Assembly: GCA_964016885.1 (NCBI GenBank)
Contig: OZ024746.1
Coordinates: 10,230,001-10,294,000, forward strand
DNA length: 64,000 nucleotides
Direction: 5' to 3'
Source: Eledone cirrhosa
Lineage: Eukaryota
A program made the translations under genes and the position numbers. Under the pieces are notes generated by a model that worked only from the letters and a program-made list of their open reading frames with translations, had not been told where the DNA came from and made no database searches. Position 1 is the first letter of the stretch, and each line of letters begins with the position of its first letter. This document shows, in pieces, positions 40,801 through 49,800 of the stretch.

Positions 40801-43800
40801 GAATTTGCTTCACAATTACATATATAATTATTTCAATTTCTAATTTAATACACTTACCTTTAACATTTTTTTTCCTTTCTTCTTTCTAACAGGTGAAATT
40901 GACAGTATTTTTAGCCTATGCTAAATTTGTTGGCATCAAATTTATTTCAGTAATATTAATCATGTTTGTCATGGTCGGCGCACTTGGCGTTTATGCAAAC
41001 ATTTGGCTCAGTGAGTGGAGCAATGATGTGTTGCTTCTCCCACAAAATGGTACAATTGACAATTCCCAGAGAGATGTCAGACTCACTGTTTATGGTGTGT
41101 TAGGAATTAGCCAGAGTAAGTTTGATTGTTTTTATCCTTTTCTTCTATAATGAAATGGTTTTTAGGATTTTGAGGGTGAAAATGTAAAAATATAGGTGGT
41201 AAAAACAAAAACAAAAACTTTAAATATTAAATGCATTTTGATTATATTTTTTGCTGTGTATGACACTTTTTTTTACCCAAAATTCAACATCAAAATTTAC
41301 CTTCATATAAATATAATATATATGCAATGTATATTAGAAAGAATCATCTGATTTATATATATATATATACGTATATATATATAAATATATGGGGGCACAT
41401 GGCTTAGTGGTTAGAGCATTGGCCTTGCAATCGAAAGGTTGTGAGTTCAATTCTCAGACCAGGTGATGTGTTTTTTCCTTGAGCAAGACACTTTATTTCA
41501 CATTGCTCCAGTTTACTCAGCTGTAGAAATGAGATGACCCTAGTCCATATCATTCCACTGCAAAGTGGTCGTGGAGGTGCCACGGCAAAAAAGCACCCAG
41601 CACCCACTGTAAATGAGGTTGGTGTTAGGAAGGGCATCCAGCTGTAGAAATCAAGCCAGAATCAGTTCCCGTCCCACCCTTGCAAGCAGGGAAAAGCGGA
41701 CATAAAATGAAATGATGATATAAATCAGATGATTCGTTTTGATCATTGTGTGGTGGGAGTGAGGATGCCACAAAAAACTGCTCCTAGTACATGCTGTCAT
41801 ATTGTTGGCATAGGAAGGTCATCGAGCTGTAGAAAACCATGCCAGTAAGCCAGAAATGGATTGTATGAACAAGATGTGATCACCTGACCTGTCTGGCCTC
41901 CTAATGTGACAACCCGTGAAACCCATACAAGCATGGAAAATAGATGTTAAATGTTGATAATGAAGATGATGATGATATATTTATATGCAGGCAAATTTTG
42001 ACAGCGAATTTTGGGTAAAAAGAAAAACAATGGGCATCTTATTCACAGAAAAATATAGTATATGTTTTTGGTCTTGAACAGAAGAATTTAAATAGTTCTT
42101 CTAATAAACTTTACTGTATTCCTTATTATTTTATTTCTTCAGGTATTGCAGTTGTGATAGCAGATCTGCTGTTGTTTACTGGTTGCCTACGAGCTGCTGG
42201 CTTCCTCCATGAAAACATATTTTCCAATGTACTTTTTTCTCCAATGGCTTTCTTTGATCAAACTCCTGTTGGCCGACTCCTCAATCGATTTGGAAAGGAT
42301 GTAGAGGTCCTGGATTTCCGTTTGGTTGAAAACATTGAATCATGTCTCATGTGTCTACTGAGGATTATTTCTGTACCCATTTTAATCATGCTGAATACAC
42401 CTATCTTTATAGTTGTCTGTATCCCTCTTTTCATCTTATATATCATATTACAGGTTAGATAGCATTTTATTTTATCTCGAAATATTCCTAACATTTATTC
42501 GTTTGAATATAATTCTTTTTCTAATATATGTTACAACCATAGTTTATCTTTGGACTTAAGTTGTTGTCATTCTTGTATTTTTTTGTTTATTCACAAAAGA
42601 AAAGCATTTCCTTATTTTGGTTTTAATCTATAAAACATTATTTTATCAAGAATCCAGCGCGCAATTAGTCACAAAAGCAAAATGCAAAACTTCATAATCT
42701 TATTCTCATTAGGCACTACTTACTCAACATTTTACAATATATTTAATAGTTTTATTTATTACAACTAAATTATACCCTTATGTTCTCCACAAGTTGTCTT
42801 GCTAAGTGGTTTCTACTCACACTAACTTATATGGTTGCAACACACACTGAAGCATTTAATTTATATAATGAATGTTTAAGTTTGCTTTATTACAATGTTC
42901 TGCACACCTTGTTTTAGTAAATCACTACAGGTCTTAGCACAATTTTTAGAATATCAACAATGAAGTTCAACACCTGGGTAGCTCAGCATGGGTTCTTTAA
43001 GTTGCTTATCTTAGAAAAGAAAATATGCATGTTTTCCTTATATATATCTGTGTGAGTCCCAGGTTCAATCGAGGGGTAACATAACCACAGTTAGTAAGGT
43101 ACTCAATACATTAGTAGAGTGTAAACATCATGTTTAATATAGAAATGGCTTCTACAGGACTAGAACTGTTTCATTCAAAGGAAATCAAAGAAAATATATT
43201 AATAGTAATCAAATTAGATAACAGGAAAAGAAAAAGCATATAATCTCATCTTGATCATTTTATGTCACTTTTCCATACTGTCATAGGTTGAATGGATCAT
43301 TACAGACCATTTTATCATGACTCCAACACTAGAGTGGTTGTCATCTCCTTGATGCAACTGAAGAGTCTTCTCTGCCTTTTGTGACACCAATACTAGAGAG
43401 ATTGTTATCTCCTTGATGTAACTGAAGAGTCCTCTCTCTACCTTTCGTGTGTGACTCCAACACTAGAGAGGTTGTCATCTTCTTGGTGTAACTAAAGAGT
43501 CTTCTCTACATTTTGTGACTCCAACGTTAGAGAGGTTGTTATCTCCTTTCTGTAACTAGAGTCCTCTCTACCTTTTGTGACACCAACACTAGAGAGATTG
43601 TTATCTCCTTAATACAACTGAAGAGTCTTCTCTGCCTTTTGGAATGATTTCTACAGCTCAATGCTACTCTGAACACCAACCACTTTACAGTGTGTACAGG
43701 GTGCTTTTATCATAGCCCTGGAATTGGAGAAGTTATAGCTTCAGCATGACTGAAGAGCCAGCCCTCTCTACTTTGTTGACTGCCGAGTCCATAGTAAGGA

Positions 43801-46800: not shown

Positions 46801-49800
46801 ATCAGATGGGATACTCTGCTGTATCTGTTCCTTCTCTCTGAATTCTGAGTTCAAAGTTGCCTCCTGTCATTAAAAATGTGGTCATGCTTCTACCATGATT
46901 TGCAACAAACAGTTAGTGTTAGCAATGGAGACATAGTTTCATTGGTCAAATCTGATGATCAGCTCTCCTTTCTCATTGACACAACAAAAAGCACCCATTC
47001 CCTGCTGTAAAGCGGTCATGTAGGTGTCACAAAAACCACCCAGCCCACACTGTAAAGTGATCGTGAAGGCGACACAACAAAAAGCGCCCAGCCCGCACGG
47101 TAAAGTGGTCATACAGATGACACGACAAAAGGCACCCAGTCCCTGCTGTAAAATGGTTGTGTAAGTGTCACAACAAAAAGCACCCAGTCCACACTGTAAA
47201 TGTAGTTGGTGTTAGGAGGAGCATCCAGCCATAGAAACCAAGCCAAAACCAGTTCTGTATGAGCAAGACATGGTTATCAAACCTGGCTTGTCTCACAACA
47301 GGACAACTCATCTAACCCATGCTAGTGTGGAAAAATGGAAGTTAAACGGTGATAATGATTATGATCACTCTAGGTCTCAAATCTGCCTTTTTACTGCTGG
47401 TATAGGTTGTATGCAGTATATGTACAGGCCCCAAACACTCACAGTGCTACCATATCCTCCTGTGTTGTCTCTTTTGCACATTTGGCAGTGTTCTTACAAC
47501 CTTTCTGTTAGAAATGTTTGATGGTTCATGCTAAATGTGTTTATTATGGCACCTTCACCAGAGTCTCCTTATAAGTGACACCTCCATTCCATACTTGCTT
47601 CAGTCAACCACTAAGAAAACAAAATAAGTTAAATAGACCAAGTGCCTTGATTGTGGGAGCCAACACAAGAGAAATTTCCACTTAATTCTTTTAGCTGTTT
47701 TTAATTTATTAACCATTTATATTTATTATTTAATTTATTCACTTAATAAATAGCTTAACCAAAATTGAGTAAAATAATGAAATTTAAAAACATTTTTCTT
47801 TTGTTTTTCCTAATTTTTGTTTCTTTTGTTTCTTTATTTATTTTCTTTCGTTTTTTTATTGTTTTGTTATTTAGACTTGACGAGCATGCTAGCTGCACTC
47901 TTAATGGCTTTCTGTGGTATGCACGCTTCATATGGCCTCTTTGATAAACTGCTTGAAAACATCTTACATCTTCCTCTGTCTACTTATGACGCTATTCCAC
48001 TTGGGCGAATTATAAACCGTTTCTCCTTTGATATTGATGATGTTGATAATGTCATTCCATTTACTATTCGCTCCATACTAAATACAATAATAACAGGCGC
48101 CTTCACTCTTCTAATCCTTTCTCTAAACACACCTCTTGTTATTTCAATTCTGCCTATTATAGGCATAATGTTCTTGTATGTCAAGGTAACTAAACACATT
48201 TTCTCTTATTTATTCTTTAATAATCATATGACATTTCAGTTAAAAATATATTTCCTTGAAATATAGATTTTGTATTCCTATATATATATATATATATATA
48301 TATATATATATATATATATATATATATATATATATATATACACACATAATCTATGTACACACATACAGTGGCATTTCCTGCATGAATGCAATGCATGCAT
48401 AATACAGTTTATTCAAGCTTGCTTGATTAGCCAACAAAATTTTTTGCATCTAAAAACGAGTTATAGTTTTTAGCCAGTATAATCCGTATAATTTAAAAAA
48501 ATTAAATGTGCTGAAAAGAATAACTGAAATGTAACAACTGACAATATTTCACTCGGCATGAATATCATATCATTGCATGTCCGCCTTTGTAGCTATTTCT
48601 CTTACATTAGCCAACACCTTTGACATACAGTTTCTTTCTCAACTCACTTCAACTTAACTATTTACTTTATGCACTGCTATACAACATTACATTTTCTATA
48701 CAGCTCATAGAATTTTGTCTTTTGTGTAACACCAGCTGAGTCTCACATTCTTATACTTGGCTTTGGTGTGTTTTAATATTATGCTGCACATTTTTTCATA
48801 TATTGTTTAATTTTTAACGTCCAAAACCACCTGAAACCACATTATCTGACATTCTTGAAAAGTACCAAACGACAGTGTAGTCTTTCTTTCGCTGTAAACT
48901 TTTACAATGATCTGTCCACTAGTAAAGTTACTATAAACATTTGAATTAACAAACCTTTTTTTTTTAAAGATATTTTCTACTAAATCACTGCAGGATATTA
49001 AGTTAACTGGCTGGAGTTTAAACCATATTGTATTTATTTATTTATTCACCATAGCAGAAATAGCATCATAGACAAACATATTACACAAGACAGCTTGATA
49101 CTTTGTGGTTAGCAGCTCAGTTCAAACTTTGGTTCTAAAGTAGCAGTGAAAATGTCAATATCTACCCATTATATATGACAAATATTTTAAGGCCATTGTC
49201 TCTACTAAAGCAGGAATTAACCTTGTAGGACTACATGACAGTCTTCATACTTATCATGGGTTCCTTTTTGAAAGTGTTTTACAGTAGGATGTCTTCTGTA
49301 ACACCAATGTATTTAGTCATCTCTTACAACACACAGGTAAACAGTGTACCTATCCTATACTAGATGTATTATATACTACTTCCAGTAAGTAATCTGAAAA
49401 TTCCACTAAAACACAGCAGTATACCCCAGTGTATCTGGTTTACAGGTATACTTAGAGGCTTTTCTTCTGTCAAACTACCAGAAACCTTGATGTTTTTTTA
49501 ATTTAGTTTCCAACTATTTACAGTCACTACACATTCAGTTTTGGGCTTGTTCCTTTCTACATATTTTACCAGTTCCTAAAAGTTGTAAATGATTTAGTAT
49601 CTTCTTATCTCATCTTCTCTGTTTTTAATCTGGAATTTCTTATATTCAGTATTCATGCACATTATGTATATATATATATATATATATATATATATATATA
49701 TATTAATACAGATTAAAAGTTTAAGCAAACAATTTCTGCTTTCACCCTAAGTGGAATCATCTAAAATTGAGAAATATCAATCTGTGGATGCAGAAGTAAA

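Follow-up and report, generated by a model that had tools for sequence, protein, structure and literature searches.

Why does a single transporter gene of an octopus carry two different copies of the same internal exon, and what would each of them do? The question is raised by a stretch of 64,000 nucleotides from Eledone cirrhosa (assembly GCA_964016885.1, contig OZ024746.1, positions 10,230,001 to 10,294,000 of the forward strand; hereafter the window), which holds a gene of the ABCC1/MRP1 type with exon 23 present twice, as exon 23A and exon 23B (hereafter A and B). We posit, at a probability of roughly 70%, that A and B form a mutually exclusive pair and yield two complete transporters with a predicted difference at the pocket face of transmembrane helix 14 (TM14), and that the pair survives from an ancient array of exons.

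The gene model consists of 31 exons, all mapping in order within the window, with approximate boundaries for exons 7-9 and 21. It encodes 1480 amino acids, 1232 of which (83%) are identical to isoform X1 of Octopus bimaculoides, and the identity to four octopod proteins ranges from 83 to 86%. A Pfam search on an orthologue (P0001) returned TMD0, two ABC membrane domains and two nucleotide-binding domains. When an octopus protein (P0017) was compared with the PDB by phmmer, MRP1 scored 1607 bits, ABCC3 1525 and ABCC2 1383. Judged by these similarities, the gene is a long MRP (ABCC1/MRP1 type) transporter whose nearest characterised relative is ABCC1 and not another ABCC; its export activity is a prediction.

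Both copies of exon 23 run from phase 1 to phase 0 and are bordered by AG and GT, with A reading ttcttcag/GTA...CAG/gttaga and B reading ttatttag/ACT...AAG/gtaact. They align without gaps, the same residue being encoded by 26 of 103 whole codons and 128 of 311 nucleotides being identical. The local alignment score of 122 lies far above that of 2000 shuffles (mean 31, maximum 61). A profile of non-cephalopod versions of exon 23 scored 113.9 and 91.0 bits at the two copies and no more than 4.8 bits elsewhere in the window, and neither a third copy nor a decayed exon of the vertebrate-like class C (see below) was detected by this search of the window. Two intact copies of exon 23 in one MRP1 gene of E. 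cirrhosa are thereby confirmed. The first-pass annotation of this DNA had described a tandem duplication of two intact 311-nt exons with equal phases, good splice sites and 26 identical residues in a gapless alignment, and our analysis bears this out. The coordinates are given in Table 1.

Table 1. Position of the MRP1-type gene and of the features around its two exon-23 copies, numbered from the first nucleotide of the window.
Feature	Position	Strand	Remarks
ABCC1/MRP1-type long MRP gene	4764..61079	+	31 exons, start codon to stop; tblastn with octopus proteins and gene model
Exon 22, common upstream exon	40906..41115	+	ends in phase 1, donor gtaagt
3' end of intron 22, candidate conserved splice element	42060..42142	+	resembles intron flank in P0016, by eye
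Exon 23A, class A	42143..42453	+	311 nt; pocket positions E,S,C,R
Intron between exons 23A and 23B	42454..47874	+	5421 nt, GT-AG, repeat-rich
Exon 23B, class B	47875..48185	+	311 nt; motif P-F-T-x-R-S-x-x-N; pocket positions F,S,T,T
TGA read if 23A and 23B are both spliced in	47878..47880	+	frame join
Exon 24, common downstream exon	50987..51186	+	phase 0
Stop read in exon 24 if both copies are skipped	51112..51114	+	frame join

The joined reading frames define which combinations can give a protein. Exons 22-A-24 and 22-B-24 are open throughout, 22-A-B-24 stops at the second codon of B because 311 equals 3n+2, and 22-24 with neither copy stops within exon 24. Single inclusion alone preserves the reading frame, as the first-pass annotation had argued in stating that one-of-two use is needed for a full protein, and A and B are likely spliced one at a time. 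Two passive explanations were considered and rejected: the intron separating the copies is too long for steric exclusion, and an incompatibility between U2 and U12 spliceosomes is ruled out by GT-AG borders at every site, so that the choice of exon must be regulated. A scan for docking/selector pairing, made in one genome and with no shuffle control, yielded no convincing candidate; it found its strongest duplexes in high-depth repeats or (TA)n and short duplexes only in the unique parts of the intron. Three sequencing runs that matched cover introns, which marks them as DNA, uninformative on expression. According to the mechanism that we propose, the spliceosome would choose between A, which seems to be the prevailing form in cephalopods, and B, and transcripts with both exons or with neither would meet a stop long before the last junction, so that nonsense-mediated decay would clear them. 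As a separate observation, the in-frame translation of the 3' end of intron 22 is similar to the intron flank of an octopod-like exon A record (P0016), and this segment might contain a splicing element.

What would be exchanged by this choice can be read from the alignment with human MRP1, in which exon 23 corresponds to residues ~1028-1130 (aligned 1036-1130, at equal length), exon residue i being human residue 1027+i. The exon presumably spans TM13, the next loop, TM14 and TM15, in agreement with the TM13-TM15 module of the first-pass annotation. The cryo-EM work on ABCC1 places bovine M1092 in TM14 and reports that bovine Q1088, M1092, S1096 and N1099 contact vincristine, oestrone sulphate, verapamil or a cyclic dinucleotide, the glutathione contacts that it lists falling outside exon 23 (PMC12647609). 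At the equivalent human positions E1089, M1093, S1097 and N1100, A and B differ in three of four cases. The differences extend to the exon classes that were assigned from the tree described below. Phenylalanine occupies position 1089 in 11/11 class B rows, 2/41 class A rows and 0/16 class C rows, and arginine or lysine occupies position 1100 in 26/41 class A rows and in no row of class B or C. Class B further carries R1092 and S1093 in all 11 rows and N1096 in 10 of them, and M1093 is found in 11/16 class C rows. Because the TM14 pocket residues differ between A and B and across classes, we consider it likely that the choice between the two exons switches the substrate of the pump, as predicted from these residues. 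With A, human position 1089 would be taken by Glu and position 1100 by Arg, and with B by Phe and Thr, so that a different cargo may fit the hydrophobic pocket, while the glutathione site, encoded by other exons, would stay constant between the isoforms.

It could also be that the pair and its age are real but that ATPase coupling, stability or membrane targeting, rather than cargo, mainly sets the two proteins apart, which we regard as unlikely. The exon exchanges TM13, TM15 and the entire cytoplasmic loop that links TM13 to TM14, and serine is found at position 1093 in both copies. According to the same structural study, mutation of M1093 mattered for vincristine and E1089A had little effect, being nearly silent for the export of vincristine and glutathione (PMC12647609). 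However, the conserved residues that are diagnostic for the classes concentrate on the pocket face of TM14 (F1089, R1092, S1093 and N1096), and the variable block of insect MRP1 ends at the last pocket residue. Both points argue for a substrate switch.

In O. bimaculoides, the MRP1 isoforms X1 (XP_014791160.1) and X2 (XP_014791161.1) differ in exon 23 alone. Exon A is identical to X1 at 98/104 residues (94%), and exon B to X2 at 85/104 (82%). Since the latter value matches the identity of the protein overall (83%), B appears to be under ordinary constraint. The top match of B among 266 candidates is likewise O. bimaculoides isoform X2 (83%), and the top named matches of A among 153 are the X1 isoforms of O. 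vulgaris (92%) and Argonauta (87%). The first-pass annotation had called the pair possibly undescribed, which does not hold given that both isoforms already exist as NCBI models. All six cephalopod-like, transcript-sized records that cover the exon carry A, which suggests that A is the major form in cephalopods. The predicted models X1 and X2 and these records with A bear indirectly on the use of each exon alone in transcripts. The exon pair is genuine and probably functional.

The predominance of A in these records would also fit a B that is hardly used in octopods and serves mostly as a poison exon, where splicing it in behind A gives a stop that tunes the level of MRP1. The position of that stop at the second codon of B and the long octopod B branch (1.14 changes per column in the 46-row tree) point in the same direction. 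Nevertheless, the stop simply follows from the exon length, and B retains its frame, both splice sites, a between-octopod identity equal to the gene average, and a motif common to several phyla. We therefore hold such a role to be improbable and prefer the reading of B as a protein-coding alternative to A.

In order to place the two exons among those of other animals, a search with exons 24-26 was used, which gave 3482 proteins, the best 120 of them listed, and isoforms were added from clusters. Isoform models varying solely in exon 23 are widespread in this set. Two versions occur in the chiton Liolophura and in the nemertean Tubulanus, three in Haliotis rufescens, H. asinina, Mytilus trossulus, M. 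californianus and the sea urchin Lytechinus variegatus, four in Mercenaria, six in Ruditapes and seven in Dreissena. A single version was present for Lottia, Physella, Lymnaea, Bulinus, Babylonia, Pinctada, Saccostrea, Ostrea, Solemya, Pecten, Ylistrum, Argopecten, Owenia, Lineus and Bugula, which reflects the models fetched and not an absence of further copies. Some models appear to fuse at least two exon-23 copies, namely those of Mizuhopecten (P0051), Elysia (P0057) and Notodromas (P0101), and are likely mis-annotated mutually exclusive arrays. An MRP-type model of the teleost Coryphaenoides rupestris (P0216, KAG7275222.1) contains two tandem exon-23-like segments and hints at a duplication in fish.

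Trees were built from a quick search with 97 rows and two careful searches with 46 (out of the 97) and 48 hand-picked rows. They recover a class B clade with a support of 98/91 (46 rows) and 98/94 (48 rows), consisting of window exon B, O. bimaculoides X2, one exon each of Haliotis, Elysia, Ruditapes, Dreissena and Mya, and the exons of both nemerteans and the bryozoan Bugula. Dropping the 22 columns of the TM14 motif leaves the support at 98/94, and because the clade persists without these columns, the grouping reflects more than convergence of the motif. One further record (P0212), which belongs to the class B-scoring frames described below, is sister to octopod B (100/99). Class A, which extends across the molluscs, unites window exon A with the remaining A exons of cephalopods, the X1 exon of the chiton, a single exon of Haliotis and the majority of bivalve copies. 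All three classes occur in Haliotis, B with C in Tubulanus, and A with B, but no C, in the window. The exon phylogeny with insect variants, which the first-pass annotation had suggested, places the insect rows outside classes A and B. We do not extend the origin of class B to bilaterians as a whole: an urchin version was its sister at 87/90, but joined the other urchin copies when the motif columns were removed.

Class B also reaches beyond the sampled trees. Of the 150 representatives listed for exon B, 34 are assigned to class B with a margin of >10 bits (from 36 passing rows, two weak matches to the first transmembrane domain were dropped). They are mostly single-exon frames ending at the same donor and are on average 43% alike. 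Asparagine at human position 1096, which was not used as an anchor, is present in 32/33 of the class B-scoring frames examined.

Approximately unbiased (AU) tests, run after the trees had been seen on groups that follow the first-pass annotation and per-phylum hypotheses, reject a single clade of cephalopod exons (p 0.0023), of nemertean exons (p 0.0022) and of mollusc exons (p 5.7e-8). We consider it likely from these data that the pair is left over from an old array of exons and did not arise by a cephalopod duplication. An exon-23 duplication before the split of molluscs, nemerteans and bryozoans would have placed class B beside the vertebrate-like C. A second duplication in stem molluscs would have given rise to class A, which then multiplied in clams, and the Eledone lineage would have kept A and B, with C absent from the window. 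The old age and selection asserted by the first-pass annotation are supported, in line with the class B clade across phyla and the conservation of B between octopods.

The same annotation had assumed a convergent origin within molluscs or cephalopods, in which the likeness to exons of other animals is due to convergence. MRP exon duplications are indeed called independent across phyla in PMC6071210 with reference to Yue et al. 2017, and this exon is not free of convergence, as the sea-urchin copies cluster together after motif removal (89/91) and the insect copies have another 3' end. Such an origin is nonetheless very improbable here, as the AU tests reject cephalopod-only and mollusc-only clades, the class B clade outlasts the removal of its motif, and the same exon varies in molluscs, a nemertean and an urchin, with a B/C pair in Tubulanus and an A/B/C trio in Haliotis.

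The first-pass annotation had itself raised the concern that one copy belongs to a paralogue or a mis-assembly. Contigs from three DNA runs, which stem from one sample and possibly the one used for the assembly, cover each exon without difference and at similar depth (41929-43110 and 47324-48267); no listed contig spans both exons. Exon B has five further matches in the genome, which by their similarity are ABCC paralogues (other ABCC genes with an equivalent exon; L002-L004, L006 and L007 on contigs C20, C17, C1361, C1 and C7 of G000). That one copy derives from such a paralogue or from mis-assembly is scarcely credible, since these matches on other contigs are 32-44% identical versus 82-94% for the orthologous exons, the corresponding pair appears in O. 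bimaculoides as isoforms from a single gene, and a tblastn search of the window with octopus proteins found no other MRP exon between the copies.

A number of further points weigh against a substrate-switching pair of ancient origin, in addition to the serine shared at position 1093, the mutational data and the uniform use of A in the transcript-sized records. No spliced read of E. cirrhosa was seen, the run search with exon B listed no RNA run, and the use of B in cephalopods comes from one NCBI predicted model whose read support is not visible. The trees are based on 103 columns and hand-picked rows, in which the support of class A is moderate (93/95, 87/93 and 89/91 across three trees) and the vertebrate-like class C is a grade and not a clade. 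No class B exon occurs among the fetched chiton, Mytilus or Mercenaria models, and the tandem genomic order is known for this window alone.

A 456-codon open frame on the minus strand (21985-23352), in the intron after exon 8, seems to resemble a LINE reverse transcriptase, and another frame in intron 11 (28292-28921, minus strand) seems to resemble a fragment of a Tc1/mariner transposase. Long intronic tandem arrays at ~11000-13160 and 52174-55317, the second with a 48-nt unit, produce artefactual open frames of repetitive sequence as long as 1048 codons.

How does the pair compare with known systems? Human ABCC1 presumably has a single exon 23. The human and bovine proteins are the best match of solved structure and align with the exon at equal length, with Met1093 facing Ser in both octopus copies. 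The X1/X2 pair of O. bimaculoides is orthologous to the one described here and consists of automatic predictions. In the insect cluster, which we take to be 'exon 8' of Drosophila MRP (CG6214), the variable block of the eight insect species compared starts at P0017 residue 1002-1003, the same 5' boundary as octopus exon 23. It comprises 74 residues (human 1027-1100) and ends at P0017 residue 1075, whereas the octopus exon has 104 residues and ends at 1105; the insect block spans TM13 to the pocket half of TM14. Because the block differs and the insect rows fall outside classes A and B, the insect array likely has a separate origin. A second insect variable block is located at ~539-587 of P0017 (P0085/P0091; Tribolium P0108/P0104), and no duplicate of the matching exon showed in the window. 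For insects, mutually exclusive MRP1 exons with docking/selector pairing are described in PMC6071210. Exons 13A-D of C. elegans mrp-1 are likewise mutually exclusive and are given as four read-confirmed exons of 156 nt (3n) that are 50-60% alike (PMC4165533), in contrast to the two exons of 311 nt in the octopus.

No paper on MRP1 exon variants of molluscs or cephalopods, or on the O. bimaculoides pair, was found in the literature searched, and Yue 2017 and Jin 2018, with their supplements, may cover part of this. Yue et al. 2017 (RNA Biol 14:1399) reportedly treated tandem exon arrays of metazoan MRP genes, Mollusca included. Those arrays concern the same gene and are of the same kind, but are cited as independent per phylum in PMC6071210, whereas class B as found here crosses Mollusca, Nemertea and Bryozoa. 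The exon pair is thus of a kind already known for MRP1 and present in NCBI models. What may be new is the history of class B; its cross-phylum ancestry is possibly unreported. The lack of a vertebrate-like exon 23 in this octopod may be new as well.

Toxicants and glutathione conjugates leave the cell largely through MRP1, and ecotoxicology makes use of the ABCC genes of molluscs. If the pocket helix is swapped along with exon 23, expression measured per gene would hide which pump is made, and the A/B pair would amount to a chimera experiment on TM14 made by nature. A class B common to three phyla would, if true, date the mutually exclusive event to >500 million years ago and point to a conserved cargo. 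We tentatively suggest, at slightly less than even odds, that lophotrochozoans have kept a class B isoform of MRP1 since before these phyla split, serving a conserved ligand that is not among the cargo of vertebrate MRP1, and that octopods, without the vertebrate-like pocket, run on two derived ones. If so, a conserved class B isoform would overturn the separate origin of MRP1 exon arrays in each phylum.

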